A stretch of DNA of 64,000 nt from a virus, in IMG/VR virus record IMGVR_UViG_3300037468_000493, positions 15,754 to 79,753 of that record, one strand, 5' to 3'. The notes under the pieces were generated by a model. It was given only the letters and a program-made list of their open reading frames with translations, was not told the DNA's origin and searched no databases. Below are positions 6,054-57,090 of this stretch, piece by piece (the stretch's first letter is position 1; the number at the start of each line of letters is the position of its first letter). The position numbers and the translations under genes are program-made.

Positions 6054-7577
6054 TTAACCAAAGCTAGGCGGAAGAATTAGAGGGATAGACATCAGTATCT
6101 CGGTTGTCGCTGGAGCCGATGCAACACCAGCAGCGGGCAGCGCTACTTCAACGCTGAAGCTATCAATCGCGCCGCCAATGACGCAATTAAATCCCCGATA
6201 GACGTACACATTATAGATGTCATTAAACTCGCTGTTGGCCGCCGTTACCGTTACCGTCCCTGTTACCGGCTCAGATCCCAGCAGCGGCCCAGAGAAGCTG
6301 ATTACAGCCTTAAATCCATTGCCAATTAGTATTCTATCCACTAGCAACGAACCACCAACACAGGCGTTTAATGTGCCTGTGACATTCGTTTCTGTACTTA
6401 CTTGAGTGAAGGTTCGTAATAGGTGGGTCAGCGGGTATCGCCAATCTGGGTAGGCATCGTTTTGATGCACTTTGAAAAAGGGTGAAGAGTTCAAGCCTGA
6501 TGATAGTGGTATCTCAATGTTATTGCCAAGAGAACTCCCGCTCGACAATGGTGAAACCGGGACAGAGGAAATATTGCCTCCAGCATTTAACTGTATGTAT
6601 TCGTAGTCGGTAAAAATCTGAGTTTCTACGTTATAGGCGTGTTTAATGAAAAAGAAAACGTTCCTTTCGTGTCCTGAAATGTAGGCATTTGCAAATTCAG
6701 GGCGATACATTCCAGGCTCAGTTTCAGGATCTGGAATGTTCGCAGAGCCATCGTGGGCGAGTGCCCATGACTTGGATTGAGGAGGTGCGATACCCTTCAC
6801 AGCAAAGCGATTCATAAAACCGCCACCCTTCACGTAATACATTTGCCCAGCAGGAATCGCGGCAGGCACTGGATCAGCATAGGGCACTACTGCATACATC
6901 AAATGTATTCTCGCAGAACTGCGCCGAACGTAAACTCTACGGGTGCCATCGTAGCGGGCTCTGTATAAATCAGATTTCACGTAACCTTTAGCGGCCACTT
7001 CAGGCGGTATGTTCCCCTGATCCCATTCAAACTGAGATATTGTGTAGCCAGTGTACTCATAGACTTCATCAATGCTGACGACCGTTCGCCTGCTAGTTCC
7101 ACTGGATGGGATCGGGGTATCATTCCCAAAAGTTTCCCCCTGTAATGGAGCAAAAACAAGATGAGCAGTACGACCTGAAGCAATTTTCCCCTCCGTAAAA
7201 AACTGGCCAGTAAATTCTGACACTAGAGGAATCGCTGGTGTTGGGAATAGGCGAATCCCCCATGTAAATGATTGATTGTCCGACAGTGTAGGGTAAATGT
7301 CATCAAAAGGATTAATTAAAGTTGTATCAAAATAGCCCTCTTCACCAGGGGTCTTGAATGTATAGTTTATATCTGCGGCCCAAATTATTAACTTGAAACC
7401 TGGAGGGATTTGGTCAGGTGGAGCAGGATCAAAGTATCTGGCAGGGAGCGTGTAAACAAGTTTGTCGTAGCCGTTGCTGACTACCCAAAATTCGGATCGA
7501 TCTTCGTATTCTGAACGGTACAAGATAGCCGCCACCCCGGCCCCACCCCCATACCAAATAAAACTGCCTAGCCCCAT
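6054..7577 (-). CDS. Putative tail protein
   Basis: ~507 aa, lower GC than neighbours, coupled to upstream gene. Confidence 0.6.
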   Translation of the reverse strand: MGLGSFIWYGGGAGVAAILYRSEYEDRSEFWVVSNGYDKLVYTLPARYFDPAPPDQIPPGFKLIIWAADINYTFKTPGEEGYFDTTLINPFDDIYPTLSDNQSFTWGIRLFPTPAIPLVSEFTGQFFTEGKIASGRTAHLVFAPLQGETFGNDTPIPSSGTSRRTVVSIDEVYEYTGYTISQFEWDQGNIPPEVAAKGYVKSDLYRARYDGTRRVYVRRSSARIHLMYAVVPYADPVPAAIPAGQMYYVKGGGFMNRFAVKGIAPPQSKSWALAHDGSANIPDPETEPGMYRPEFANAYISGHERNVFFFIKHAYNVETQIFTDYEYIQLNAGGNISSVPVSPLSSGSSLGNNIEIPLSSGLNSSPFFKVHQNDAYPDWRYPLTHLLRTFTQVSTETNVTGTLNACVGGSLLVDRILIGNGFKAVISFSGPLLGSEPVTGTVTVTAANSEFNDIYNVYVYRGFNCVIGGAIDSFSVEVALPAAGVASAPATTEILMSIPLILPPSFG

Positions 7578-8137
7578 CACCCACCCCTGACCACGACCGT
7601 GGCGTAATAGATCCCCGTCCCTACGTCATCGACCCGGACTCCTACAAAGTCAGCAGGCTCAATCACCGTCACCCCGAGAGTCACAGCATTACCATTCACT
7701 AAAAGCGTCCCGGTGCCTGCTGTGGCGGCCTCTCCCGTCTCTGTGCGGTTTGAGATAGTGAAGCTCACGGCCACATACTGAGCTTCGGCCCGAGGGATGA
7801 TGCCGTAAACATTGTTGACCACTGGCCCCGGTATGCCGATCGCCCGTTCGGTGGTCTCCGCTGCAATATCAGGCAACCGCCCTTGGATAGGTGGCACAGA
7901 CGCGATCGTGATAATGCCGATTGGGTTACCGGGGATAAACGCAACCGCCGCATCCAGCCGAGGTTGAGAATCTCCAATCACCCGGCCCTGCGCTCGTCGG
8001 CCCTGGGGGTCTTCCACGTTGCCGACCTGGCCCTCTTGCCCCTTGACCCAGCCCTTCCAATACCAAACAGCACCCTCGGGCTTTAGCGGGGCGATTCGTT
8101 GGGCGGCGGCGGTGTTGTACTGGCTAGGGGAGGGCAT
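7577..8137 (-). CDS. Putative tail protein
   Basis: 186 aa, tightly packed in tail operon. Confidence 0.6.
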   Translation of the reverse strand: MPSPSQYNTAAAQRIAPLKPEGAVWYWKGWVKGQEGQVGNVEDPQGRRAQGRVIGDSQPRLDAAVAFIPGNPIGIITIASVPPIQGRLPDIAAETTERAIGIPGPVVNNVYGIIPRAEAQYVAVSFTISNRTETGEAATAGTGTLLVNGNAVTLGVTVIEPADFVGVRVDDVGTGIYYATVVVRGG

Positions 8138-8139
8138 AG

Positions 8140-8919
8140 CTAGGCGGCAGGGTCATCGGCGGCATAGAGCGGATAGTTGAGCTGCCCGGTAGCGCTGGCA
8201 GCAACGATGGTCTGGGTTGAATCAAACCTAAAAAACTGGGCCACGGTGCCTGTGGTGTTCCCCGGCGTGGCACTGCCCCCCCTGATGATGGCACAGCCGC
8301 TATAGGTGATGTTGGCCCCATTGGTATTATCGAGCAGAATAGGCACCGTCAGAACGGCATAGTGCGATCGAGTAGCCAGGGCCGCGTCTGGCTCTACCAG
8401 GATAGAGGGGCTGGCGGGGCTAACGGTGGGCCGATTGCTGGTACTGCCTGCGGTGGTAGGGTAGGCCGCGATTTCGTAGCGCTCCAGGTTTGCCACGCTT
8501 AAGAATAGGTTGTACTGGCTCCCGGTGATGATTGCGCCGGGGGTGACCTCGACGGCGGTGTGGGTGCCACTACCCTGGGTGGTAAGGTCGATCGCACTAC
8601 CGATCGCCCCCGCTGTGGTCAAGGTCGCCACGGTGATCTGAGTAGTGCTCGCAACGGAGGCCACATAGTAGGCGGTCTCTGCTACCAAGGGGGCCGGGAG
8701 CACCCCGGTGGTTTCAAACCGGAGACAGGTGCCCACGGCATAGTCACTGCTGGGCACCGTGACTACATTGGTGCTGGTGTTGACATCCGTTGTGGCAAAG
8801 GTGCGGCTGGCCCCGGTTGCAGCCATATTCATCAACATTAGGTGAAAGCTATCGCCATTGCTTTTGTAGAGCAGGTTGAGGTGACGGGTTAGCTCGGATA
8901 GGGGTGTGATTGAGGCCAT
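8140..8919 (-). CDS. Putative tail/virion protein
   Basis: 259 aa; beta-rich segment DVNTSTNVVTV...GVLPAPLVAETAYYV similar to a segment of the fibre protein. Confidence 0.6.
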   Translation of the reverse strand: MASITPLSELTRHLNLLYKSNGDSFHLMLMNMAATGASRTFATTDVNTSTNVVTVPSSDYAVGTCLRFETTGVLPAPLVAETAYYVASVASTTQITVATLTTAGAIGSAIDLTTQGSGTHTAVEVTPGAIITGSQYNLFLSVANLERYEIAAYPTTAGSTSNRPTVSPASPSILVEPDAALATRSHYAVLTVPILLDNTNGANITYSGCAIIRGGSATPGNTTGTVAQFFRFDSTQTIVAASATGQLNYPLYAADDPAA

Positions 8920-8951
8920 GGGTTTGCATCCTTTGGTCTATTGTGGCAGAT

Positions 8952-9623
8952 TCATGAGATGACAGGCTCCGGCATCTTAGGATGGGTAATCGCCCAGTCT
9001 CCGGCTTCCAGTGATGGGTTCCACTGGGGCCGCAGTTCAACTTCAGGGAACCCATCTGCGTTTAACCAAGGCAAAGGGCAGTATCCAAGTTTACTCAGGT
9101 GATAGCCAATAACTGAGTCTTCACTTACCTGATCCCCCTTGTAGAAAAAGTTTTGCCTTTCGCTGGATGGCAGTCTCTCTAGGTAGGCTGCAAGGCGGAT
9201 TAGCAGTAATCGAGAAAAAGCCACCCCAGCCCCAGTTGTAGATAGGATACGTGCTTCAGGCTGATAGAACACTTGCCCGATCCAGTCAGTACAGGGGTCA
9301 GGCATGAAGGCTTGGCGGCGAATCTCCGAATCTGGATCGACTTGGATCAAAGTCGGCGCGGTTGTTGCAGATAGCGACTGGGAGAAACCACGAATCAAAT
9401 GGTCTTCGCATCGTCCCGGCAATTTTAAGCGTTCAGGATTGCAGATTGCAGTAATCCCTATCATGGCGTTTAGCTGCGAAACTAGCTCAGTATCAACCGG
9501 GCCATCCGATGTTGCCACAATTCTGGATTCACTGTACCATCTGCGAATCATCCCGACTAGATTCAGGACAAGGTGTTGATCCCCTTCCCAGAAAAAAAAG
9601 AAAAAATCTACTCCTTTACTCAT
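8952..9623 (-). CDS. Putative GT-A-fold glycosyltransferase
   Basis: DxD motif (QVDPDSE), GAGVAFSR and SEDSVIG motifs; overlaps the GT4 gene. Confidence 0.55.
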   Translation of the reverse strand: MSKGVDFFFFFWEGDQHLVLNLVGMIRRWYSESRIVATSDGPVDTELVSQLNAMIGITAICNPERLKLPGRCEDHLIRGFSQSLSATTAPTLIQVDPDSEIRRQAFMPDPCTDWIGQVFYQPEARILSTTGAGVAFSRLLLIRLAAYLERLPSSERQNFFYKGDQVSEDSVIGYHLSKLGYCPLPWLNADGFPEVELRPQWNPSLEAGDWAITHPKMPEPVIS

Positions 9624-10539
9624 TCCGCCCCCTGGCAGAATCCTCAAGGATTTTGACTAACTTTTCTGCTACAGCTACATGTCCGTATGGCTCAGCCATC
9701 GATAGGGCTTTGTCATAGTGCAATGGTCGACGGTTAAGCACTGCGCTGGCAAATCGATCTGGGCTACCGTCGATTAGGTAGGGGGTGCCTGCCAATGTTT
9801 CATCTGGGCCTCCACTGCCCCTAACTGCGATTGGGGTGCAGCCGTGGGCCAGTGATTCAACCACAGGCATCCCAAAGGGTTCATGAGGGCACGGAGCAAT
9901 AAGCCATTTTGCTTTCAAATAGTAGGGTTTTGGGTCTTTTTGTCTAGCATACAAAACCTGGTCATGAATCCACCTTGCGTTAATGTCTCCCCAAACATCA
10001 CGAGATGATGGGCCGACAATTGTTAATCGAAACTCTGGAGTTCTAGGCAAATCTGCCATCATGTTAAGCAAAAGGGAAAGCCCTTTACTGCGCTCTACCC
10101 TGCCCACAAATAGCAACCCTTGCCTTGATTTTGGATCTACAGCATTAACTTCGCTTGCTTCAGGCAAGATGATTGCCTCAGGCAAGACCGCCGCCCCAGT
10201 AAAGCTATTTTGTGTATTTGCCCGCATGTGCTCAGCGGTAACTATCCATTGATGCACTCCACTTTCTAAAACGAATGGTTCTGGCCGGGTAACGGGGTTT
10301 TGCCTAATCCATGCAACCCGTTTAGCTACTGGAACACACTTGAGTAAGTCAAGATTTTCCAGACACGTTACTGCGTACCACTTAGACGGAGAAAAAAGCT
10401 TAAATCGAATCCAATTTGTGCAATCAAGCGCAATTGCAGGTTTGCCGATTGCATTGAGTCCAGCAATCAAGTTTGCCGTGCTTACGGCCTTGCCCGACCA
10501 GGGTTCTTCCCTAGTCAAGAACGTTATAAAACGGCCCAT
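9616..10539 (-). CDS. GT4-family (GT-B) glycosyltransferase
   Basis: LLFVGRVERSKG and EPFGMPVVESLAHGCTPI signature motifs. Confidence 0.85.
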   Translation of the reverse strand: MGRFITFLTREEPWSGKAVSTANLIAGLNAIGKPAIALDCTNWIRFKLFSPSKWYAVTCLENLDLLKCVPVAKRVAWIRQNPVTRPEPFVLESGVHQWIVTAEHMRANTQNSFTGAAVLPEAIILPEASEVNAVDPKSRQGLLFVGRVERSKGLSLLLNMMADLPRTPEFRLTIVGPSSRDVWGDINARWIHDQVLYARQKDPKPYYLKAKWLIAPCPHEPFGMPVVESLAHGCTPIAVRGSGGPDETLAGTPYLIDGSPDRFASAVLNRRPLHYDKALSMAEPYGHVAVAEKLVKILEDSARGRNE

Positions 10540-11474
10540 CGATTGCCCCCAGTCGTGCCAGCGACATAGGCCGTGACAGTTACAGCCCCGTAGCCGCCCG
10601 AAACCAGTGCGTAATAGAGCTGGCCTTGATAGTCAGCCGTCACTGAGTTATCAGGCGATCCGCTGCTGGAGCTAATCAAAGGGGTGCCGCTGACAACTAC
10701 CCATCCTGATGATGCTGTAGTTGATGCTCTCCACATTGTTCTTGAGCTTAAGGAAGTTCGGCTTTGAATAACAATTTCGCCCAAGAAGGCTGGCGTCCTG
10801 GAATTTAATGGGCTAGTGCTTATTTCGGTAAAAGCTGTACTGCTACTGCTAGCAAGACTCAACGTCCAGCTAGCGATCGTGCCACTGCCTCCGGCCAGGT
10901 CTGAGGTAAACACCAGCGTCGTGGACGAATAGCTAGTGATCACCCCTTCCATATAGTTAGCAGGAGTTGCACTGCTAGCGAGTCGAATCCTTGATCCCAC
11001 CACATAGGCCAGCCCCGCCTGTGTGGTGACGCTGATTGAGCCACTAGAAGCAATCGTGCGAGACGTGGTTGAAGTCCCCCCGTAGCCTGCCCCTGCCGCC
11101 CCCCGATCGCCTGCCAGGCTGAGGTTCCAACTAGCAAACGTGCCACTGCCTCCGGCTACATCCGAGGTAAACACCAGGGTCGTGGACGAATAACTGGTAA
11201 CAACCCCTTCCATGTAGTTAGCAGGGCTGGCGCTACTGGCAAGCCTTACCCGGCTACCCACGACGTATGCTAAACCAGACTGAGTGCTGACGGTGATTGA
11301 TCCACTAGAGGCGATCGCCCGAGATGTCGTCGAAGTGCCCTTGTATCCAGGCACTAAGTTTTGAGCCGTCACAAAATGATCAAGGCTAGATCCAGCCCTT
11401 GCTACCAGAAAACGATCTGTTGAATTTAGCGTTGTTATTTCGTCGGTAAAACTACTCAGTTTTTTGTTAGGCAT
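10524..11474 (-). CDS. Tail fibre-like protein with an internal duplication
   Basis: Two copies of GTSTTSRxIASSGSI...ANYMEGV(V/I)[13 protein letters not shown]...SWxLSLA. Confidence 0.65.
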
Positions 11475-24794: not shown

Positions 24795-26873
24795 TCATGG
24801 GGCATCTAGAACACGGTTCAATAGCGGAAAGTCATATTCTTCTAAACTTTGCTGATATGCAGTAAAGTACGTTTGAACCTTAATCCTTTCTTTCTCATCA
24901 TGATTAAGCTTTTGGTTAAGGTTTGATTCAATTAGCCATGTACTTAATTTTCCAGCCCGGTTGACCTGGAAATTATGATCAACTTGCCCTAACGGCTTGC
25001 CATCTTTGCCATCTAATAAAGCTGGATCGCCTGTCCTCGGGTCTTCCCCTACTATCTTTGCGTTTGTTACAGGACAGTGACCGTGGTAGCGAAAATGAAC
25101 AAAGCGAACATGAAGATCTCTGACCTTTTCACTCACCCTGTCACGTTTGTTCCGAAGTTCTTCTCCTAGCTGTTGACGGATCTCCTCAACAGAGCCGCCA
25201 ATGCTAGCCATCCCATTTTCTAGATTGTTTATCTTTGCCAGCCATTCAACAGATTCTTGATATCCTGTAGGCTCCCAATGCTCTAGATTATTGATTGTTG
25301 ACTGAAGTTTGAGTATGGTAGCTTCAATGCGATCGAATCCCTTTTTATTCTCATCCTGGCCTCGAACAATCAGGGCTGTAACCTTCTCAAACTCTGCCTT
25401 TAACTCTGGAATGAATTGAGATGGCAGCGCTGCATTTATCCCGTTGTTACCAACAGCAGGATCTTCTAGGCGAGATGCTTCCGAGTTTAGCTGCCGTTCT
25501 AGCCCCCGGTCTTTGATGCCCTTGACTTGCGAAGCCAGCTTATTATTGTATCGAGCATCGCCCAGGTAATCCAAAGCCAGCCAAGCTGGAACCAGGTGCT
25601 TCTCTGATGGTTTCAGGATAAACCCATGATTGGCCAAGGCGTGGCGCAGTGTGCCTTCGTCTCGGTTTCGCCCACCTGCTTTGATCCCGATCGCAAGCCG
25701 GTGATCGGTAGCACCTTCTACCCGGTAAAACTCCACGCCGCTGTACTCAGCCAATGCCGATAGCTCCAGGGGAAGTCCGGTAGTCGATTTCAAATCGACT
25801 ACCGGAATCAAAATCTGCTTGTCGGCTAATGCAAAGCTATCCACAAAGTCTTTTGGCCTTGACTCGCCTGTCTTAAACAGGCTCAGCGTGGAAGCACGAT
25901 AAAGCGGGATACCCATAAACTCTACATCGGGTGCTGGCAGCTTACCATCAGCTACAGCCGCCGCAAACTCTGCAAGGGTAGGGGCGATGTTGGGGTCTAT
26001 GCCGTGGCTCGCCTCTCTGTGCTCTGGCTGAAGTGCAGAGCGTGGCGTGTTGACGATAGCCCTGGAGTCTTGGTCTATGCCGTGGCTCGGTTCGCTGCTC
26101 GCTGGCTGAATAGCTTCGGTAACCTGGGCTTTGATTGGACTTGATCTACGGGCTTTGGTCTGTGGAGGGGCATTGACAATAGGCGACACAGCGATCGCAT
26201 CATCCCAATCAAAGACTCTGCCCCTGTATTTTGAAAACGCCTCAATCAACTGGCGGCTGTAGTAGGTGTTGGCTCCGCAACGCTTGTACCACTTGCCACC
26301 CCCAGAGGGATCTAAGTATTTTATGCGAAATTCTCTTTTACAAGCCAGGATTGAGGCGTTACAAGAGTCGCAGGGATCTTCCCCGCCATATCCGAACCCA
26401 GCCGCAACCGCGTCAACCCGCAACCACTCCGTCGGCTCAACATTAGCAGGGAAAAACGCTGATATATCATCTTGAGCCTGAGCACTGGTGAGAGGCTTCT
26501 GCTCAACTGGGGATGGGGTGCTCACCCGTGGCTCAGGCTCTATCCATCCATCCCGTTCGGCCTGCCACCTGGTAACCTGATCAGCGTAATCCTTCTTCTC
26601 TTTTGGAATAAACGGCGTCAATTCTGGCAACGGCGTCAATTCTGGCTCGGCCATGAGCGCAAACAATGGCAACGGCTCAGCAGTGCTGCGGTTGTGGCCT
26701 GGCGGAAAGTCACGAGCAGCCCACTTGCAATTACTGCACTCATACCTAAACCCGTTCTTCTTTTTGTCACGTCGCGTCGTGTTGTGCCCGCAGTTTTCGC
26801 ACCTTCTAACGTGCAGACCAGTAACCGACACTACCCATTTTTCAGTTAATCCGGACGCACTCAATCCACTCAT
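24795..26873 (-). CDS. Multidomain protein: N-terminal Zn ribbon, coiled coil, C-terminal HNH-like segment (antirepressor-like)
   Basis: CENC...CSNC; HCPVT...QVDHNF...LNQKL. Confidence 0.55.
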   Translation of the reverse strand: MSGLSASGLTEKWVVSVTGLHVRRCENCGHNTTRRDKKKNGFRYECSNCKWAARDFPPGHNRSTAEPLPLFALMAEPELTPLPELTPFIPKEKKDYADQVTRWQAERDGWIEPEPRVSTPSPVEQKPLTSAQAQDDISAFFPANVEPTEWLRVDAVAAGFGYGGEDPCDSCNASILACKREFRIKYLDPSGGGKWYKRCGANTYYSRQLIEAFSKYRGRVFDWDDAIAVSPIVNAPPQTKARRSSPIKAQVTEAIQPASSEPSHGIDQDSRAIVNTPRSALQPEHREASHGIDPNIAPTLAEFAAAVADGKLPAPDVEFMGIPLYRASTLSLFKTGESRPKDFVDSFALADKQILIPVVDLKSTTGLPLELSALAEYSGVEFYRVEGATDHRLAIGIKAGGRNRDEGTLRHALANHGFILKPSEKHLVPAWLALDYLGDARYNNKLASQVKGIKDRGLERQLNSEASRLEDPAVGNNGINAALPSQFIPELKAEFEKVTALIVRGQDENKKGFDRIEATILKLQSTINNLEHWEPTGYQESVEWLAKINNLENGMASIGGSVEEIRQQLGEELRNKRDRVSEKVRDLHVRFVHFRYHGHCPVTNAKIVGEDPRTGDPALLDGKDGKPLGQVDHNFQVNRAGKLSTWLIESNLNQKLNHDEKERIKVQTYFTAYQQSLEEYDFPLLNRVLDAP

Positions 26874-32395: not shown

Positions 32396-33541
32396 TTAGC
32401 CAGCGATCCGCACCGCCAATTGAGGACGGACGGCTCGAACCCCGTATAGACAATCAATCGAAAACACAGTGCGCTTCCATTCCCGTTGGATTTCAAAACG
32501 CATTGCCAGTCCCGACACATCATCCACTAAGGGCTGAATGAGTGAGCCTGGAGTTTCCAAGTCCATCATCGGTCGGCTGGCAAACGCAAACGCCTCCCGA
32601 TGAAAGGCTAGGTTTGTCGTATGAGATGCAACAAACGTCACCACAGCACCATCAGTCACGTTAGCCGCCAGTGCAGGGCTAATGCCCACGGTGGTTTCGT
32701 TCGCGGTTGGCGCATCGGCGGTCACGCTGGTGACTACATACTGCTGGGTATTGCCTGCAATCGTGAACACATCGCCCACCACAGGCAGGGTAGCTAGGTC
32801 AGCCCCAGAGGCGTTGTCCAGCACCAGGGAGACGGCCCCGGCGGTAGCGTTAGCGTCGATCGCAGCCGTCGCGGGAGCCCCCAGTGTATGGGTCGGAACT
32901 TGCTGGTCTTGATACCAGTCAAAGCCCAGGGCTCGGGTAATGGTGCCATCACGCAGCGCTTCAGAATCGCCAGATTCGTTGACCTTCTGCAACACCGAAA
33001 GGCCGAGGGCGTTGGCATAGCCAAATGGGTCTAGCACCATGCGCCGCTCGTCCATGGGGGCCAAGGCACTGTTGAGGACTCGGGCAGCTTGCTGTGCCTC
33101 TAGGGTGGAGGTACCGAAGGGGTTAACGCCAGCGGTGCCCACAACGTTGTAGACCTCTTTGTAGAGAGCAAAGATTTCAGAGTTGATCTTATTGGCCAGG
33201 GCCTTAACAGCTTTCTCAATGGCTCGGGGCCGGGTGCCTTCTTGCACCTCTTTGATTTCCTTGTCAGTCATCACAAAAGTAGCAGCCTGGAATTTGTTTA
33301 GGACTAGCTGCTTTTTGGTGCTGGCCACATCAGAGATGATGTTGCTCGCTGGGGTAGCGCCGGGGGTGACATCAAACGCCGTCATATCGTTAAGGTCGTT
33401 AATGTCAATGGTGCTGCCCTGGGCGGCTGCATCGGAACTGTAGTTATTGTTGACCAGGTTGGGGAGCACACAAGTTTCTCGCAATACTGAAAGGATATTG
33501 GCGAGAATTTGAGGCGTTAAATTTTCGATTGCGTTAGCCAT
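32396..33541 (-). CDS. Major capsid protein (P22 coat-like)
   Basis: 381 aa; NLAFHREAFAFASRP and SIDCLYGVRAVRPQLAVRI motifs. Confidence 0.9.
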   Translation of the reverse strand: MANAIENLTPQILANILSVLRETCVLPNLVNNNYSSDAAAQGSTIDINDLNDMTAFDVTPGATPASNIISDVASTKKQLVLNKFQAATFVMTDKEIKEVQEGTRPRAIEKAVKALANKINSEIFALYKEVYNVVGTAGVNPFGTSTLEAQQAARVLNSALAPMDERRMVLDPFGYANALGLSVLQKVNESGDSEALRDGTITRALGFDWYQDQQVPTHTLGAPATAAIDANATAGAVSLVLDNASGADLATLPVVGDVFTIAGNTQQYVVTSVTADAPTANETTVGISPALAANVTDGAVVTFVASHTTNLAFHREAFAFASRPMMDLETPGSLIQPLVDDVSGLAMRFEIQREWKRTVFSIDCLYGVRAVRPQLAVRIAG

Positions 33542-33708
33542 GATCGTTCCACATTGAATAGGGCAAAGAGGTTTGTAGCGTCTCTACCTGCATCGCAGTG
33601 GATACCCATCGGGCGTCCGGCGCTGAAAAAGGGGTGATGGTCATCGACCATCACCCCCCAATAGTACCCAATTTTTCGCAGTTGTGCTAAGGGATTACCG
33701 CAAGAGTA

Positions 33709-34584
33709 TCATGGGCGAATGTTAACGCGCTGCTTCCCGCTTGCGATCGCCTTGAGTTCTGCCGGGGACATGCTGCCCATATTGGTCAGGTCGTCCCGCG
33801 ACATGATTATGTCACCGCCTCGGCCATTGCCTCCGACCACGCCAGCGCCCGAGGATTTGTTGTAGGCGGCGACCATAGTCTGCAAGACAGATCCATACCG
33901 GCCTTGTTGTATTTGGCGGATAAAGTCTCGCAAGTCGGCCTTCTTCACCTCGCCTGGTGCACTGGGATCATCGACAAAACCCAGGGGCTTTCCATCGGGG
34001 CCAGTGATCGACTTCACCTCAGACCGATAGCTCACCACAGTCTCGCCACGCATGACAGGTATGTAGTCAAAGTCGACGTGGGACGTGATAAAAGATTCAA
34101 ACATACCGGACTCTGCCTCATTGGCGGGTGAGAATCCAGCCTGCTGGCCGATGGCAGTAATGGTCTGCGATCGGGCTGTTTCCTGAAGGCTTTGGGTGAG
34201 TAGGTTGATCCGTTGGTCGTAGGCCTGTTTCAATTCAGCCTTTTCCCGCTCCGTCTGCAATCGCACTTCAGCTTCTTTTTTTTGCCGTTGCTCTTCCTCA
34301 ACCTCTTGCCGCTCCAACTGAGCTAACTTTTGGCGCAATTCGGCAGGGTCAGCACCACCCAAAAGTTCATCAAATAAATCTGCCTTCTTAGCCTTACTCT
34401 TGAGATCTTGATTATCTGCCTTGATTCGTTCAAGGGCAGATTTCAGCGCAGCCACGTCGCTAGCTGGAATCATCCCAGACTCATCAGGGATATCGCGGAT
34501 TCCTACAGAATCATTGGAAGGGATCACTGTACTGGCATCGCCAGCCGCCGCCACGTCGGGGGCGTTTGTGAGGTCATCAGCCAT
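33709..34584 (-). CDS. Capsid scaffolding protein
   Basis: Acidic N-terminus, coiled coil, SSGAG near C-terminus, upstream of MCP. Confidence 0.75.
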   Translation of the reverse strand: MADDLTNAPDVAAAGDASTVIPSNDSVGIRDIPDESGMIPASDVAALKSALERIKADNQDLKSKAKKADLFDELLGGADPAELRQKLAQLERQEVEEEQRQKKEAEVRLQTEREKAELKQAYDQRINLLTQSLQETARSQTITAIGQQAGFSPANEAESGMFESFITSHVDFDYIPVMRGETVVSYRSEVKSITGPDGKPLGFVDDPSAPGEVKKADLRDFIRQIQQGRYGSVLQTMVAAYNKSSGAGVVGGNGRGGDIIMSRDDLTNMGSMSPAELKAIASGKQRVNIRP

Positions 34585-34616
34585 TTGGAATACTCGTAAT
34601 CGGTACGACTACAAGT

Positions 34617-35444
34617 TTAGCCGATAGGTAGGCGATCGCTCAAAGTAGCCATGCGATACTCAACCCGACAACGGCAACGGCCCCTACACCGGCAGGCCAC
34701 ACCCACCGGGGTTACCTCCGCAGCCGGTATCCAATCAGGACGGGCAAGGCCAGGACAGTCGGGGCAGTGGTCGGCGGCAGGGTCAAGCATTCGTCTCGCC
34801 ATCCACCGACCATCGAGGTGGCTTTGGTGCTGGGCATCAAAGAAACTGGCCCCAGCGCTGTAGCCATACCGCCCCGCCCGGTATCGTGCCATCTTCTCTG
34901 ATATCTCGCCGTCGGCAATACCCTGGGCCAGATTAGCTAGTCCATCAAGGTCCGCCACTATCTGCCGTCGCAATCGTTCTAGATGTTCTGGGGTGAGCTG
35001 CCCCGCTGTACCGGCCCCGGACTGGGCCATCCGAAAATGCGATCGCACAATATCCCGGCCCATGGCCCGTTGCCATTGCTCCAGGCTCACGTCTCCGGCC
35101 ACCATGCGATCGGTGAGTCGTTGCATCCGGGCTTGGTTCTGGGCCTGTTCTGTCAGTACCCGGCGTTGGAGGTCTGTGGTCGTCAGCGGCGATCGCCCTT
35201 GGTAGTATCGCCCATCCCGCGCACTGTAGGCCAAGCCCCTGGGGGTGAAGTTAGGGATCAGGGCCAGCAGTAGGGCCGCCACCAATAGCTCCTCAAGGGC
35301 GTTGCTGGATTCCCGGTTGGATTCATCAATGAGGGTTTGCAGTTCAGCCGTATCGTAAGGCGGCTCAAGGGCGTCTGTCCCTACCAGTGCCTCAAGTTCG
35401 GCTAGGGGGTAGGCAGTGCCGTTGATAGTGAGGGTTTCTACCAT
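34617..35444 (-). CDS. Head morphogenesis / minor capsid protein (SPP1 gp7 / MuF-like)
   Basis: HCPDC...CRCRGRCRC C-terminal motif. Confidence 0.7.
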   Translation of the reverse strand: MVETLTINGTAYPLAELEALVGTDALEPPYDTAELQTLIDESNRESSNALEELLVAALLLALIPNFTPRGLAYSARDGRYYQGRSPLTTTDLQRRVLTEQAQNQARMQRLTDRMVAGDVSLEQWQRAMGRDIVRSHFRMAQSGAGTAGQLTPEHLERLRRQIVADLDGLANLAQGIADGEISEKMARYRAGRYGYSAGASFFDAQHQSHLDGRWMARRMLDPAADHCPDCPGLARPDWIPAAEVTPVGVACRCRGRCRCRVEYRMATLSDRLPIG

Positions 35445-35504
35445 GGGCCTCAAGGAAAAACGGGAAGCCCCTCGGGTGAGGGGCGGGGGTTAGGTGAGGG
35501 TGGT

Positions 35505-35744
35505 TTAGGCTGCTTTTGCAGTCCTAATTGTCAAGCTTCTGTGATGCCAGTCTGCGCTTACTGCACCTTCACTGGCAAGCCACTTAGCTGATTTAAGTGC
35601 GTTTTCCCTGCCCTTAGTTTTGGCTGGGAAGAATTTTTGAACACCTCCGTCAGCGATGCCCCGTCCATTTTTGATTTGGATGGTGCCAATTTTTATCCAT
35701 TCGCCACTGGCGGATTGTGCAGCGATTTGAAAAGTAGTAGCCAT
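35505..35744 (-). CDS. Moron-like small ORF with own promoter and terminator
   Basis: Cassette promoter upstream, hairpin near 35466-35490 downstream. Confidence 0.65.
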   Translation of the reverse strand: MATTFQIAAQSASGEWIKIGTIQIKNGRGIADGGVQKFFPAKTKGRENALKSAKWLASEGAVSADWHHRSLTIRTAKAA

Positions 35745-35806
35745 GTAAGTGCCCTCCCAGGCGGTGGTATGTATCCACTATAACCCACACCTTTTGTGAC
35801 TGTCAA
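35742..35806 (-). promoter_or_regulatory. sigma70-type cassette promoter and leader
   Basis: TTGACAGTCACAAAAGGTGTGGGTTATAGT...CATACCACCGC. Confidence 0.75.
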
Positions 35807-35861
35807 CCATCATTCTGTACTACTTTGGACTGGTACTGGTGAAGGCCATAGCCTTGATCCC

Positions 35862-36278
35862 CTAAAACAAAATATTCCCGCCCTCGGTCACCGCCCCCAA
35901 CACATCCTGCGGGTCGATCAAGTCTTTCAGCTTGGCCTTAAGTGCTGCCAGCTTATTGGTGTAGGCGGTACTCTCCTGCACCCCAGAGGGCGATCGAGTA
36001 ATAGACAACTCCCCGGGGATCGACACACTGGAAATACCATCGTTGGCCGTCAACCCCAGGTCTAAATCTTCATCGGGGTCTCCGTACAGGGCCACCTGTA
36101 GCGCCTCAATCCGTTCCAGCAACCGCTGCACTTGGGCCACCACGGCGTCGCCATACTGCGCATCAAAAACTTCAACATCGCGTAACAACGTTTGGAGCCG
36201 GGATGACTCAGTACGCTGGTGTCGCTCCAGGTTCAAGGCTTCGGCGATGGCAATACGGTTCGCGGTGGTGAATGGCAT
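35862..36278 (-). CDS. Putative head-tail adaptor
   Basis: 138 aa after portal; ISSVSIPGELSIT. Confidence 0.55.
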   Translation of the reverse strand: MPFTTANRIAIAEALNLERHQRTESSRLQTLLRDVEVFDAQYGDAVVAQVQRLLERIEALQVALYGDPDEDLDLGLTANDGISSVSIPGELSITRSPSGVQESTAYTNKLAALKAKLKDLIDPQDVLGAVTEGGNILF

Positions 36279-37804
36279 TACTGCACCCCCATGGTAGGTT
36301 GGCCAGGTGTAGCCGCAGATAGCCCCAGTGTACCACCAACCAACGGCTCACCCTGGCCTGCTACCGCTTCCATCTCTTCAGTATAAACGCCCAATTCTTT
36401 GCGTTTCACATCGTATTCAGCTTTGTTCAAAGCCCCTGCCAAGAACTCAGACTGCCAGAACATCAACTCTTGGGCCGTCGGCGGGGTTGATAGCACTGAT
36501 TCAGATATTGTGATGCCACCCACAGGATTTTCAGGGCTCCAGTCAGGGTTGCTGAATCGTTCCCACAGGTCAAAAACTGACTGCACTGCTGATTCCTTAC
36601 GGCGAGCAATATTGCGCAGACCTAACCGGGATTGGATAGTTTCGATCTCAGCCTCGGTCGCAGTTCTGGCGACCGTGCCATTGCTCAAAAAAGCCTGGGC
36701 CATATCATCCATCGCCGCTAACCGATCCCGTTGCCCTTCCCGAGTGGAGGCGATCGCAGTGCCCGCAGGCTCCAGCAGGTTGAGCGATGCCCCACCCGCT
36801 AACGTAATCACCCGACCACTCCCGGCTAGGTCTGGTTCCTTCTCCGGGGCCGCGCCAGGGTACGTTTTCACCAGCATGGCGTAGTTGCAACGGTCTTCAG
36901 CCGTGTTTAGGCTGCTGTGCTTGTTAAAAAACTCTAGGTTGAAATCAACCAGGGGCATATACTCAGGAGTCCCGCCCCGGTCATTGTCATTGTCCACGCC
37001 AGCAAATAACAGCGGATCCCCATAGGGCGAATACCATACCAATGGCACTCGGGCCAGGGGACGGCCAGCAGCGTCAAAGATGGGGCTAGGAGGCTTAGTC
37101 TGCATCAACTCACTGCCCAGCCCCTTTGCAGCCCTGGGAACATCTTCCCATTCTTCGTACAGGCATTGGTAGCGCTGTTCAGCCCCACCGGGTAGCCGGA
37201 TAGGGGTGCCTAGCTGCTCCAGCGAAAATACCCAATACCGATTTCGCACGGTGTAGCCAAACCGGCCCTCTGGCACCGACACAGACCGCCGGATACTGAT
37301 TAGCGATATCTCTAAATGGCCGTTAACCAGCATGGTCTGCGGGGCACACACATCCCGCAAGTTGATCGGGATAAACCGGGGTCGTCGTGTCTGGCGTTGC
37401 TCGTCGCTGCTCTCCGCTTGTGGAGTATCGACCAGGCCCAGAACGCCGTTATAAAGCAAGGCCTCAATGTCCCAGTCCAACAATACTGACTCCAGACTAT
37501 TCCCCTGGCCGTCGAAGTCGTCTCGGGCATCTAGCACCGTCTGGGGTACATCGTCATCGAGGACAAATTCACTGAGCAAACCAGAGTGTGCCTTGACGGC
37601 GGGACTAAGTTTATTGGCAAAGGCCACTGATTCGATCCGGGCCTCATAAACCTTGTCGTGTTCGCCCAACTGCTGCCGCAGGTAACGACGCTTTAATTCG
37701 TCAGTGTGAAGGCCATGGTAAACGTCCCCTAGCCGGAGCCATAGGGGGCTTAAATATGTTTGCCAATACGAGGGCCGCCAGTCTGGCGTGTCTGTTTTTG
37801 CCAT
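36278..37804 (-). CDS. Portal protein (DUF4055-like)
   Basis: 508 aa after TerL; YL...E...YEARI, DGQGNSL and RTATEA motifs. Confidence 0.85.
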   Translation of the reverse strand: MAKTDTPDWRPSYWQTYLSPLWLRLGDVYHGLHTDELKRRYLRQQLGEHDKVYEARIESVAFANKLSPAVKAHSGLLSEFVLDDDVPQTVLDARDDFDGQGNSLESVLLDWDIEALLYNGVLGLVDTPQAESSDEQRQTRRPRFIPINLRDVCAPQTMLVNGHLEISLISIRRSVSVPEGRFGYTVRNRYWVFSLEQLGTPIRLPGGAEQRYQCLYEEWEDVPRAAKGLGSELMQTKPPSPIFDAAGRPLARVPLVWYSPYGDPLLFAGVDNDNDRGGTPEYMPLVDFNLEFFNKHSSLNTAEDRCNYAMLVKTYPGAAPEKEPDLAGSGRVITLAGGASLNLLEPAGTAIASTREGQRDRLAAMDDMAQAFLSNGTVARTATEAEIETIQSRLGLRNIARRKESAVQSVFDLWERFSNPDWSPENPVGGITISESVLSTPPTAQELMFWQSEFLAGALNKAEYDVKRKELGVYTEEMEAVAGQGEPLVGGTLGLSAATPGQPTMGVQ

Positions 37805-37821
37805 GGCCGTATTCTAGCCCA

Positions 37822-39279
37822 TCACCACATCGCGGGAGCACCGAGAGAGATCCTGCCCTCGACAATAGAATCCATCACCGCAAATGCCATCGCCATCGCC
37901 ATTACTCGGTCATCATGGCCTGTTTCTGCCTCCCGTTCCCGCAACGAAAATGCCTTCATTTCTCGGATGCCCTCCCAGTCGGCGGGGTAGATGGCCTCAC
38001 CCCGTTCCACAGCGATCGCAATGCGGTCGGTGTTGGTCACCTTAGATACCCGGCTGGTGTTGATGTTCTCAAACCGGGTAAAGGGTCGGCGCTTGCTCAG
38101 GTTCTCTAGTACCACCTTCCCGCCGCTATTGCCCTCCACGGCTACAATCTGGGGTTTGTAGCGATCGCAGTAATCCATCACAGCTACCATGCTCAACTCC
38201 ACCGACCGCTGGCCCTCAGCGTACTCTGCCACCAAACTAGGGCACCCATCAGTGATATCCCACACCTGGGCCACGAACCTATCATCGCCGCCGAAGTTGG
38301 GGTCAACTCCCATGACATACCGGTGCCCTGCTGCTGGCTCTGCCCAGGCTCCTATGGCCTGCCCGTCAACCGACTGCGCGTGGAACAATGCCCCGCCGGT
38401 GCTGTCGTCAAAGGATATGTTAAATTCTCGTTGGGTCTGGGCTTCGGTGATCCGTTGTTTCTCCCGAACCTCAATCAAGTAATTGTCATTCTGCCCATGC
38501 AGCGGGTGAGCCCGCCAATGGATGATCGCCTTACCCCAGCCCTGTTCATCGACCCATTCTTGGTAGGGCTCAATCAGTTCTTCCCGCATCTGGCGGCAAA
38601 TATCTAGGGCATCCACATCACCATTGTTTTCGGTGAAGGTTTCGTAGTACAACCCTGTTTTGGCGTTAGGGGTGCTCAGCAAAATAGTGTGAGCCTGGCC
38701 TTGTTGCTCCGGCACCGACTGCGCCGGAGTGCTAGCCCCAAACAGCTCCTCAAACCCCGACACAAAGGCGCACTCATCAAATAAAATATCCCAGATTGAT
38801 TCCAGTCCACGCCCACTGTTCTGGCTAGCGGTGCGAAACACAATCCGCCCCCCGCCCTCCACGGCGATATCCTTCACGTTGTTGCTAGATAGCGGGATTC
38901 CGGCGCTGGCTGCCATCAACCGCACCCGTCGGGCAATGTTGGCCGTATCGTCCTGGCCCTTACTGAATACCGCTGCAAAGTAGGTCGGATAAAGACAGGC
39001 CTTGTGCAAAAACTTACTGGCGACCATCTCAGTCAAGCCATGTTGTCGGGGCTTGACGATGACCACACCCCGGCATCGGTCTATCAGGGTGCTGATGTTT
39101 GTCTGAAAGAAGTAAGGGTCAAACGGCACCATCTGAGTTCCCGACCGAATACGGGTCAGTCGGGCAAAGCTGGGCCAGTCTCTAGGGATATGAACCAGGT
39201 GTTGCGGCACGGCCTGGAGCGATCGCCGCCGTCGCAGTTCTAGCTCTGCCCGAGCCCTGGTCGCAAGGTCAACCGCCAT
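37822..39279 (-). CDS. terL: Terminase large subunit
   Basis: KPRQHGLT Walker A, LFDECAF Walker B, STPN, GVDP, HDDRVMA nuclease motif. Confidence 0.95.
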   Translation of the reverse strand: MAVDLATRARAELELRRRRSLQAVPQHLVHIPRDWPSFARLTRIRSGTQMVPFDPYFFQTNISTLIDRCRGVVIVKPRQHGLTEMVASKFLHKACLYPTYFAAVFSKGQDDTANIARRVRLMAASAGIPLSSNNVKDIAVEGGGRIVFRTASQNSGRGLESIWDILFDECAFVSGFEELFGASTPAQSVPEQQGQAHTILLSTPNAKTGLYYETFTENNGDVDALDICRQMREELIEPYQEWVDEQGWGKAIIHWRAHPLHGQNDNYLIEVREKQRITEAQTQREFNISFDDSTGGALFHAQSVDGQAIGAWAEPAAGHRYVMGVDPNFGGDDRFVAQVWDITDGCPSLVAEYAEGQRSVELSMVAVMDYCDRYKPQIVAVEGNSGGKVVLENLSKRRPFTRFENINTSRVSKVTNTDRIAIAVERGEAIYPADWEGIREMKAFSLREREAETGHDDRVMAMAMAFAVMDSIVEGRISLGAPAMW

Positions 39280-47186: not shown

Positions 47187-47330
47187 AAAATATCCTTGTG
47201 GTTCAGGTGATTGAACTACCGCGCCCCGGCTGCTACAACAGCGTGGGGCATTACCATTTTACCTTACAAATCTCACAGTAGAATCATAGGAGCATCTACG
47301 CCCTACCCTTGCCCTGCCCTGAGATGCCCT

Positions 47331-48131
47331 GTGAGTCAGCCTACCCCCTTATCTTTGGTCTTCGGCCCTGACTTTGGGGTTTCACATCGCCATCCTGATG
47401 GAGAAGTACGGTATTGGCGCGATCGGCTCGCAGGCCACATCCGAGTATTTAAACCGGTAGTCGGCGGGGTTGAGCGCAATATGTTTGAGCTGGGCCGTCA
47501 CCCTAGCTGCTGGCTGCGGATTGGCTGGGAATCTGTCTCCGGCCATGAGCGGCAACGCACCAATGAGGCTGGTTACCCACTATTTGGGGCTATCAGCCGG
47601 GTGATGGTCACCATTGCCTGGGCCAGTGAAACAGACTACCCCTGGATCAGCCATAGCAAATGGCTGGTGATGCCTGGGGGCGTGTACGTGGGCAAAGATG
47701 GCCACCGCGAATCTAGCACTGCCCGCAATGGCGTTTACCTCAATGGCCACAGGCTCAGCGATGGCGACAACCCCGAGTCCCTATTTGAGCCAGGGCAACA
47801 CGAGGCTTATTTGTCCCTGGGCAAAACCGGGCGAATCATTATCGTCGACGGCTCCCTGGATGAACACAGCACCGGCTGGCCCACTCAGGTCTGGACTGGG
47901 GCCAATTGGCCTGATGGTGAGGCTGACGAACCTAGCACCGACCTATCCCCGCAACGACTCCAAGTAGAGGGCCAGGTGGCAGCGGCAAAGACCGGCGCTG
48001 ATGTAACCGGGCGAACCATGGCAGACCTGGCCGCGATTGTGCTGTACGGCCCGGAGGGCGTGGATGCTCGCCTCTGGTGGGCATTCTGCGGCCTCCTTGG
48101 GGCTGTAGTGTTGTGGATTTTGGAACGATAA
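47331..48131 (+). CDS. FHA-like domain protein with C-terminal TM helix
   Basis: LGRHPSC, ISR and RNGVYLNG motifs in FHA order, with insertions; hydrophobic C-terminus. Confidence 0.6.
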   Translation: MSQPTPLSLVFGPDFGVSHRHPDGEVRYWRDRLAGHIRVFKPVVGGVERNMFELGRHPSCWLRIGWESVSGHERQRTNEAGYPLFGAISRVMVTIAWASETDYPWISHSKWLVMPGGVYVGKDGHRESSTARNGVYLNGHRLSDGDNPESLFEPGQHEAYLSLGKTGRIIIVDGSLDEHSTGWPTQVWTGANWPDGEADEPSTDLSPQRLQVEGQVAAAKTGADVTGRTMADLAAIVLYGPEGVDARLWWAFCGLLGAVVLWILER

Positions 48132-48856
48132 TGTCTCACTCGTACCCTTCCGTAAAAACGGCGATCCTCACCGGGGCGATCGGGCTGCATTATCAGCCAA
48201 TCCACAACTTGAGCGATAGACGGCTGCTAGGCTATGAAGCGCTGGCCCGGTGGGGTGATTTGCCGCCGCCACAAATCGCGGCCCTGGTGGAGGAGCACAG
48301 CTTAGAACTGCTCTGGGTACGTCGCCAGCTCCACGATATTGATGAGATCCTGACCGAGATTTATCCCCCAATCTGGATCAGCTTCAATTTAGATCAAAGA
48401 GTTTTAGCGATCGAATCGCTAAGCCATCTGCTCAACACCAGCCCCCATCAACTGGGTATCCATGTGGAAGTGTTGGAGTCAGTGAAGCTACACCCCCAGG
48501 CCGTTGCAGCCCTGATGAAAATATCGCACAAGCATATCCTCAAAGCCGACGATATTGGCAGCCTAGACTATGCCTGGATTGATCGCCTGATTGGTGACCA
48601 CGCAGCTATTTTCAACGGGTTCAAATTATGCCGAGGGCTGACCCGCGACATTCTGACAAATCCCCGGACGGCCATTGCGTGTAGATTGTTTCTGGACTTG
48701 GCGCGATCGTGCCAACTGGAAACCATTGCAGAATGGGTTGAGTCGGAGGAACAGGCACAGCAACTATTAGACTGGGGCTGCGATGCTGGCCAGGGCAGCT
48801 TGTTTGGACTTGCGCAGCCCTGGGAGCACTGGCGGGCCAGGTATCACGGGCAATAA
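48131..48856 (+). CDS. EAL-domain protein (c-di-GMP phosphodiesterase-like)
   Basis: LHYQPI, YEALARW, SFN, EVLE, DDIG, FKL, AEWVE, GCDAGQG. Confidence 0.88.
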   Translation: MSHSYPSVKTAILTGAIGLHYQPIHNLSDRRLLGYEALARWGDLPPPQIAALVEEHSLELLWVRRQLHDIDEILTEIYPPIWISFNLDQRVLAIESLSHLLNTSPHQLGIHVEVLESVKLHPQAVAALMKISHKHILKADDIGSLDYAWIDRLIGDHAAIFNGFKLCRGLTRDILTNPRTAIACRLFLDLARSCQLETIAEWVESEEQAQQLLDWGCDAGQGSLFGLAQPWEHWRARYHGQ

Positions 48857-48901
48857 AAAACCCCAGCCACGGGGCCGGGGGTGCGCTCTCAAACGGTGGG
48901 C

Positions 48902-49257: not shown

Positions 49258-49518
49258 TTACGTTGGCTGCACTGTATCCTCCGGGAAACATTCACGGCTG
49301 CCCTTCTCGCAGTCTGCAAGAGACACCCATCCACCTGCGGGGGACTGCCGACCCTCGCGGGAGCAATCTTTATGATTCTCATCTTCGCTGCCACATTGCG
49401 GCAACTGAGCAAGGACTCGGCCTGTACCCCGGTCTGCGTTGGCAGGCTGCGGTAGCTCGCCGCAAGCAGGGGCAACCATCAGGGCGGATAGGGTAAGGGA
49501 CAAGAATTGAGTAAACAT
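49258..49518 (-). CDS. Putative secreted peptide with RGTGR motif (PatX/PatS-like)
   Basis: GGAG RBS; hydrophobic signal-like N-terminus; LPQPANADRGTGR (motif at 49417-49431). Confidence 0.55.
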   Translation of the reverse strand: MFTQFLSLTLSALMVAPACGELPQPANADRGTGRVLAQLPQCGSEDENHKDCSREGRQSPAGGWVSLADCEKGSRECFPEDTVQPT

Positions 49519-49655
49519 GGTGGTTCTCCAGAATATTCCCGGTGGTTAGCCGGGGGTGTGTACGGTTAGTAGTTTTCAGTGCCTGGTGTGAGATGACTGG
49601 CAGTAACCCCTACACCCCGCGACCCAGCCTCCTGAATCGCGGGAGTGCTGTGAGA

Positions 49656-50105: not shown

Positions 50106-50186
50106 CTGCTCAAATCTCCTAAATCCTTAACTATTACGATAGTACCGTGCTATTCTCAACTAGGCAAGTACCTAGTTGAGAGATTT

Positions 50187-56187: not shown

Positions 56188-57090
56188 ATGGTTGCTACCC
56201 CCATAGTTTCACGGGAGACTCATGATAATTTGTCTCCCGACCACTTCCCCTACTTCCTTGATCGAGGATTTAACTTCGACCACATCCAGCTAATCCAGTC
56301 CTGGGGTGTGCGCTCAATCAACCTGCAAGAATCCCTACGACTAGGGATCAAAAAGTACGACCCTGGCACCAAAAGACATCTCAGTGATGGCGGCATCTGG
56401 TTCCCCTTTACCAGCACCTATGGTCAAGTCAGGTTCAACACGGCTCTAAAACTGAAATCAGGGGAAGAATACCGATACCTCAGCCCTCGACAACCGGCAA
56501 AGGCCTGGATACCGCCAGGGGGCCATGGGTTTGGATCTGTGGATGCTATCACCGAGGGCTGGGCCGATGCCGCCGCGCCAACGGTAAGGGGCGTGCGTAC
56601 CGCTGCGATCGTCGGAACCTACAACGTGATCTACAGCGTAGACAAAGACTGTGGAGTGCCCCTTATCTACGACTCAGATGGATGGATGAAACCGCAGGTG
56701 ATGAGGGCGCTGATTCTGGGCGCTATCTGGACGAATGGCAGGATTAACATTTTTCCACAGATGGAGGCATACCCCAGCGGTGGGGGCAGTGAGTTTTTTA
56801 AGTCGGGCCGCACCATCGCCGACTATCAGCAACTGATCAATGAAGCCCTGACCCCTCACCAGTTGATCAAAAAATGGATCGGGTTCTGGGGCCAGATGGA
56901 TAGGGCCACTCAGACCAAGGCGATCGGGGTGGCGGCTGAGGCGGCTTACTGGATTCGCAACCCTGACCAGGTACTGAGATACCTGGAGCAATGCCGAGAG
57001 GAAAAGATCCCGGTTGAGGTTGGCACCAGTATTTATCACGAAGAAACCCACGAATATTTCTTATCCCAGGCCATTGAGGAACCAACATGA
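56188..57090 (+). CDS. Toprim-type primase (DUF3854-like)
   Basis: YRYLSP, ITEGW, YDSD motifs; coupled to helicase. Confidence 0.7.
   Translation: MVATPIVSRETHDNLSPDHFPYFLDRGFNFDHIQLIQSWGVRSINLQESLRLGIKKYDPGTKRHLSDGGIWFPFTSTYGQVRFNTALKLKSGEEYRYLSPRQPAKAWIPPGGHGFGSVDAITEGWADAAAPTVRGVRTAAIVGTYNVIYSVDKDCGVPLIYDSDGWMKPQVMRALILGAIWTNGRINIFPQMEAYPSGGGSEFFKSGRTIADYQQLINEALTPHQLIKKWIGFWGQMDRATQTKAIGVAAEAAYWIRNPDQVLRYLEQCREEKIPVEVGTSIYHEETHEYFLSQAIEEPT

Follow-up and report, generated by a model that had tools for sequence, protein, structure and literature searches.

The locus and its precursor gene

The window, by which we mean the whole 64-kb stretch of DNA analysed, covers bases 15754-79753 of a 79,753-bp IMG/VR record with direct terminal repeats. 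The record carries genes for TerL, a DUF4055 portal, a P22-type coat protein, an SF1 helicase, a D5-type primase and several DNA methylases. TerL, the portal, the P22-type coat and the terminal repeats bear out the assignment of this DNA to a phage, as made in the initial annotation.

P0001, an early-region gene of this cyanophage, lies at 49258-49518 (minus strand) and codes for an 86-amino acid precursor composed of a leader, a DRGTGR cassette and two Cys-loop modules. It is the middle gene of a unit of three minus-strand genes, with a 149-aa gene (50105-49656) as the 5′ member and an 87-aa gene that starts with MATLEDYK (49165-48902) on the 3′ side. Two XRE-type HTH genes are divergent from this unit, and an EAL gene is convergent with it. 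An intrinsic-terminator-like hairpin with a T run, revealed by a sequence scan at 48861-48880 (minus strand), lies between the convergent units and would end the minus-strand unit. A candidate sigma-70-like promoter is located 5′ of the 149-aa gene, on the side where the XRE gene diverges from it (50130-50159, minus strand); it is a weak consensus match (9/12), and one such site was found where 1.1 are expected in shuffled sequences. Pfam and PHROG searches with the 149-aa and 87-aa neighbours returned no family.

It had been proposed that the peptide gene is transcribed away from tandem XRE genes and towards an FHA-EAL operon, with which it would form an island controlling host development. 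The orientation is as described, but the peptide gene, as the middle one of its three-gene unit, is not directly adjacent to the XRE genes or the EAL gene. The ORF at 48077-48856 (plus strand) has a clear EAL domain (Pfam, E 7e-28), whereas the so-called FHA ORF (47211-48131, plus strand) had no match in Pfam or PHROG at E ≤ 0.01. What stands of the island is conserved synteny, observed in a sister phage (L001, IMGVR_UViG_3300042561_001378), a 33.6-kb metagenome contig (L003) and a divergent 35-kb record (L005, IMGVR_UViG_3300007517_000020). L001 and L003 have the same gene arrangement: the 149-aa gene adjoins the peptide gene, and the 47211-48131 ORF and the EAL ORF are both kept. The arrangement is kept more loosely in L005, where the interval 6998-11404 codes for an XRE protein, an exported Cys-loop protein, a MATLxxYK protein (the counterpart of the 87-aa product, whose gene is syntenic in all three), an EAL protein and the product of an ORF that is FHA-like by eye.

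The 90% identity clusters of the 149-aa protein, TerL and the portal contain many 72-79-kb ENA contigs, and parts of the region are present in seven studies, hence this phage lineage is widespread. The sequencing runs matching the region were sediment and aquatic metagenomes, with no RNA run among the matches listed.

The HIP1 sequence (GCGATCGC), a hallmark of cyanobacterial genomes, occurs 35 times in the 64-kb window against 0.94 expected. A cyanobacterial host is well supported by sequence, above all by this enrichment. The best TerL matches were to phages of filamentous Nostocales (Cylindrospermopsis, 41% identity; Nodularia, 36%), and a filamentous, hetR-bearing host is no more than suggested. 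Portal matches were mostly to marine cyanosiphoviruses of Synechococcus and Prochlorococcus (∼25%), and the coat protein is nearest to those of Vibrio siphophages (45%), so that the phage genome is considered mosaic. The structural genes as a group (32396-39279, minus strand) are mosaic in origin, with TerL, portal and coat pointing in different directions. The EAL protein gave only ∼30% matches against plasmids, to Proteobacteria, which are uninformative on the host. The phage record contains no HetR domain, and the phage encodes no S13 peptidase.

The P0001 frame is free of internal stops over its 86 codons, and a Shine-Dalgarno sequence, GGAG, is present 7 nt 5′ of the ATG (49526-49529, minus strand), in agreement with the good ribosome-binding site noted initially. 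When P0001 was compared with its L001 orthologue, the changes at codon positions 1/2/3 were 9/4/20, and with the L003 orthologue they were 11/1/18. This third-position bias indicates that P0001 is translated in that frame. Given the GGAG, the bias and the relatives present in several sources, the 86-aa ORF is a real gene.

Residues 1-28 (49435-49518, minus strand) form a putative Sec-type leader, with an h-region at residues 5-16 whose 11-residue Kyte-Doolittle maximum is 2.15. The leader was called by heuristic hydrophobicity and its cleavage sites by the -3/-1 rule, which gives APA↓C (after residue 18) and ANA↓D (after residue 28) as candidate AxA sites for signal peptidase. An AlphaFold2 model built from family alignment A1 (mean pLDDT 50) contains the leader helix only, at residues 3-15, and the remainder is low-confidence coil. 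The h-region and the helix agree with the signal-peptide-like N-terminus of the initial annotation, and P0001 is probably exported. The spacer that follows, described there as Pro-rich, hardly deserves the term: it reads ELPQPANA, with two Pro in eight residues.

The Cys after the hydrophobic stretch had also raised the possibility of a lipoprotein. The lipobox of P0001 is poor: it reads A-P-A-C, where a lipoprotein would need L-[AS]-[GA]-C with its Cys invariant. P0006, P0009 and P0012 have Val instead of Cys19, and distant relatives have no Cys there. The lipoprotein assignment was rejected because Cys19 is not conserved.

The DRGTGR sequence reported initially is confirmed by translation and by the family motif tally, and constitutes module A (residues 29-34; 49417-49434, minus strand). 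Module B (residues 42-64; 49327-49395, minus strand), delimited by alignments and a regular-expression tally, consists of a C-x9-C loop followed by SREGRQSPAGGW. Module C (residues 69-81; 49276-49314, minus strand), delimited by alignments and conservation, reads DCEKGSRECFPED and contains a C-x6-C loop. The loops of both modules are probably disulfide-bonded, and the two modules may stabilise or target the precursor, or provide a second activity. No match was obtained in a PDB profile search with the P0001 family, a Pfam search of P0001 gave no domain match (SDR included), and a protein-atlas search gave no usable feature match, its structure rows being uninformative (model pLDDT 0.34).

A family with a mobile RG[ST]GR cassette

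Word-indexed and exhaustive HMMER searches, together with a profile search, assembled a family of ∼65 small proteins from phages and metagenomes, in which module C is the most conserved part. The window's lineage comprises long forms of 84-95 aa with the order A-B-C, and short forms of 55-56 aa with the order A-C, without module B. The short forms are phage-borne, because they lie on contigs with the 90% cluster of the 149-aa neighbour. In the short forms P0005 and P0007-P0013, module B is gone as a 30-residue indel, and the leader, the cassette and module C are intact.

Elsewhere in the family the modules are shuffled. The order is B-A-C in, e.g., P0030, P0033 and P0039-P0054; B-C-A in P0032 and P0037, with a 12-residue tail after the cassette; A-B-C-A in P0025, which has two cassettes; C-A-B in P0026, P0034, P0040 and P0057; C-B-A in P0053; and B-A in P0061. 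In P0067, which has a leader and a Pro-containing spacer ahead of the cassette, the order is C-A and DRGSGR forms the very C-terminus. The cassette was thus found at no fewer than six different positions relative to modules B and C, and always at a module boundary or a chain end.

A hydrophobicity scan detected an N-terminal h-region in 56 of the 65 members, and the distant members have textbook leaders, with K/R near the start and AxA-type ends. The nine members without a leader are the C-first subfamily and module-C-only 'MxFQLPP' proteins; hence the family is not uniformly exported. The proteins of the C-first subfamily (P0026, P0034, P0040, P0053 and P0057) are leaderless, 141-155 aa long and Pro/Ala-rich at the N-terminus; their module C is of the HHC type, and they carry an additional C-terminal domain of ∼70 aa. 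P0063-P0070, which come from metagenomes, are 49-73 aa long and consist of module C only ([D/N]CxKGSRDCFPEDRVG), except that P0067 also has the cassette; most of them are leaderless and start with MxFQLPP. P0066 corresponds to WP_275337035.1 of Nodosilinea sp. PGN35 / TSF1-S3, which is filamentous, and is made of module C alone; it had no match among plasmids.

The distant members come from short contigs, P0037, P0050, P0058 and P0061 being on contigs of 6-18 kb. Two pattern scans of 185,579 species-representative genomes revealed no full-family relative, a rescan of the viral contigs with subfamily alignments gave nothing new, a metagenome scan recovered the same lineage only, and tblastn of P0001 against phage records gave no match. 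Four large proteins (P0028, P0029, P0031 and P0036) were discarded as low-complexity false matches.

RG[ST]GR is present in 47 of the 65 family members, as RGSGR (25) or RGTGR (23), and position 3 is always S or T. Given the composition of the family itself, ∼5e-4 occurrences per protein would be expected by chance. The general form of the cassette is [D/G]-RG[S/T]GR-[V/I], and in the C-first subfamily it has moved together with its flanks, as [D/E]GRGSGRIA, from between C and B to after B. Exact retention despite positional mobility, compared with such a low chance expectation, argues that the cassette itself is under selection: on the sequence comparisons, the pentapeptide, rather than its structural surroundings, is what selection acts on. 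This combination of positional mobility and exact sequence retention is the strongest result of our analysis.

We considered whether the motif could be a coincidence or a decaying relic in a gene for a small secreted protein or lipoprotein. Within the window alone, RG[ST]GR was found three times in six frames against 1.0 expected, which is not significant, so that the significance of the motif comes from the family only. The absence of an intact motif from 5 of 24 sequences of the window's lineage, and the Cys after the h-region, are also compatible with a relic. Retention at the family level across shuffled architectures is not, and neither the poor A-P-A-C lipobox nor the Val at position 19 of P0006, P0009 and P0012 fits a lipoprotein. 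The family data disfavour this explanation, and we regard it as highly improbable. The two other RGSGR strings of the window, at 34760-34774 (plus strand) and 56237-56251 (minus strand), are antisense to real genes, and the second is kept in L003 and in L004 only because the DNA itself is conserved.

Within the window's lineage the GTG core is conserved in 20/20 sequences, R30 in 19/20 and R34 in 17/20, and module C is more conserved than these two arginines. The L001 protein, P0003, has LGTGR in place of RGTGR; the short forms P0008 and P0013 have RGTGL, and P0011 has RGTGI; and in P0027 the cassette is deleted. In L005, no RG[ST]GR was found anywhere in 16 kb; its homologue, P0042 (7890-8279, plus strand), is a 129-aa protein with modules B and C and a long Ala/Gly-rich insert. 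The conservation of RG[ST]GR in homologues, proposed initially as a check, speaks for the most part in favour of the initial interpretation: it holds for 47 of 65 proteins, but not for L001, these short forms, P0027 or L005, and on the available sequences the cassette is neither indispensable nor universal in the family.

These observations lend themselves to a different explanation, namely that P0001 is an exported phage Cys-loop protein whose activity resides in modules B and C, at the envelope or in the periplasm (superinfection exclusion, receptor masking or protease inhibition), and that RG[ST]GR is a flexible linker or a processing site unrelated to HetR. Modules B and C are what the syntenic, cassette-less L005 has kept; module C outranks the arginines in conservation in the window's lineage and stands alone in the cyanobacterial protein P0066 of Nodosilinea; and the cassette is confined to module boundaries and chain ends. 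However, a generic linker would not keep five exact residues, with S/T variation only, over at least six rearrangements, and in P0067 the cassette is the C-terminal end and links nothing. Furthermore, cyanobacteria have only one known signalling pentapeptide, with which the sequence is identical, and HIP1 points to a cyanobacterial host. We find the linker explanation rather unlikely, but keep it alive because the cassette is dispensable in some relatives. The higher conservation of module C relative to the arginines within the window's lineage means that modules B and C may hold the core function.

Comparison with known signal precursors

In the best-studied case of bacterial Turing-type patterning, in which HetR acts with PatS, HetN and PatX, RG(S/T)GR peptides serve as diffusible inhibitors. 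Elhai and Khudyakov are said to have defined PatX in 2018 as a small protein with a Sec signal and RG[S/T]GR near the C-terminus, after a Pro-rich stretch, and they reportedly found it in hetR-bearing genomes, often directly upstream of hetR. P0001 resembles the PatX of Nostoc/Anabaena PCC 7120 (Asl2332) in that it is a small precursor whose Sec-type leader is accompanied by a short spacer containing Pro, it has the same RGTGR variant, and a hexapeptide set free outside the cytoplasm is the expected acting form. Unlike PatX, P0001 is phage-encoded, and within the phage record it neither lies beside hetR nor co-occurs with it. Its cassette directly adjoins the leader, with 52 residues still to come, instead of being near the C-terminus, and its two Cys-loop modules are, as far as checked, not known from PatX. 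A PatX-like placement of the cassette is seen in some relatives, namely P0067 (end DRGSGR), and P0032 and P0037 (12-residue tail).

P0001 was also compared with the PatX model NCBIfam NF047413 (heterocyst_PatX), which has a curated cut-off of 30 bits. Among P0001 and 18 relatives there was no match at E ≤ 10 except for P0025, with 11.6 bits. Against the six-frame translation of the phage record the model gave 9.7-bit noise only, on 34760-34774, and 13 of 14 control genomes behaved similarly. With the PatS model, NF047415, neither these 19 members nor the six-frame phage record scored above noise. No DIF1 sequence (TCCGGA) is found near P0001, and the sole sites in the 64-kb window are at 26850 and 46420; TCCGGA is under-represented in the window in general, with 2 occurrences against 13 expected. 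By the NF047413 model, P0001 is not a member of the PatX family. We conclude that P0001 has a different scaffold from PatX, because the profile models gave no match, the motif lies far from the C-terminus and a DIF1 promoter is lacking, and that, judged by its sequence, it would at most be PatX-like in action.

P0001 and PatS have the same pentapeptide motif, preceded by an acidic residue (D in P0001, E in the PatS6 sequence ERGSGR). PatS, however, is a peptide of 13-17 aa with a C-terminal RGSGR and no signal peptide, whereas P0001 has 86 aa and a leader; moreover, PatS is thought to be processed in the cytoplasm and is confined to heterocyst formers. HetN, a short-chain dehydrogenase-like protein with an internal ERGSGR, shares with P0001 an internal motif within a larger protein that needs processing, but P0001 is small, has a leader and lacks the SDR domain.

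A comparison outside cyanobacteria is AimP of Bacillus phages. Like P0001, AimP is a phage-encoded, leader-bearing precursor encoded in a regulatory region, and in both cases a hexapeptide would be active. A signal from phage to phage had been suggested initially, and an exported small precursor encoded in the regulatory region, divergent from two XRE-type regulators, could be one of the arbitrium type: a secreted peptide which later infections sense via a phage receptor and by which they decide on their course. Yet Pfam and PHROG searches of the neighbours revealed neither an AimR-like nor a TPR receptor, which leaves that suggestion without a receptor candidate, and the 79.7-kb record contains no integrase or large serine recombinase, hence no evident lysogeny decision. 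P0001 also differs from AimP in its extra Cys-loop modules and in that it copies a host signal: arbitrium peptides differ between phages, whereas the conserved peptide here is the host's and is not lineage-specific. We consider an arbitrium-type role very improbable.

Possible interference with host cell-fate signalling

RGSGR/RGTGR is the sole feature common to PatS, HetN and PatX, and is essential for the suppression of differentiation (PMC7761841). PatX has a Sec leader, its export is required, and its maturation is the work of a periplasmic peptidase, PatP (Xu et al. 2025, PMC12756182), which is present in 86% of cyanobacterial genomes (PMC12756182). [quoted passage not shown]

Against this background, we hypothesize that P0001 is a phage-borne PatX analogue which, once exported, is cut down to an RG[ST]GR peptide inhibiting HetR, a proposal for which we see the chances as evenly balanced. 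By analogy with the known precursors we infer export, cleavage, the disulfide loops, uptake, HetR as the target and a benefit to the phage. Expression of P0001 would be early, as part of the unit that diverges from the XRE genes; the precursor would be sent to the periplasm by Sec, and signal peptidase would remove the leader. Cleavage at ANA↓D would place DRGTGR at the new N-terminus; in P0025, the first RGSGR is likewise located 2-3 residues past the predicted cleavage site. A host periplasmic peptidase, e.g., the near-universal PatP, could then trim the precursor to an RG[ST]GR hexapeptide, which would spread through the shared periplasm of the filament, enter the cells, bind HetR and block its DNA binding. 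HetR-driven fates would be suppressed, be it heterocysts or, in non-heterocystous hosts, necridia and fragmentation, and the infected filament would stay vegetative and productive for the phage. The virus may, in short, tamper with the cell-fate signalling of its host.

HetR as the target in non-heterocystous hosts is uncertain, because in the non-heterocystous Leptolyngbya BL0902 the effects of PatX on expression seemed largely HetR-independent (PMC11298460).

A wider proposal, which we advance tentatively and with somewhat less than even confidence, is that a widespread cyanophage lineage, when infecting, releases a counterfeit host morphogen into the periplasm shared along the filament, carried as a mobile cassette on an exported, non-PatX scaffold. 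This peptide would turn HetR off in the infected cell and its neighbours, and thereby block heterocyst or necridium differentiation. If this is true, the differentiation of necridia (sacrificial cells) or heterocysts would otherwise limit virus spread, and the cassette's repeated changes of place, its duplication and its occasional absence would be the trace of continuing selection on a developmental signal carried by viruses.

In the literature searched, we found no link between RGSGR or PatX and phages. On sequence grounds, the RG[ST]GR precursor described here is phage-borne and built on a non-PatX scaffold, within a family in which the cassette moves. Should the proposed function hold, it would represent viral mimicry of a bacterial morphogen by means of the virus's own exported copy, and would give phages of a multicellular host a reason for reaching past the cell they infect. 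It would also bear on the part that HetR and PatX play in non-heterocystous filaments. The family itself offers natural negative controls, in the LGTGR, RGTGL, RGTGI and cassette-less forms.
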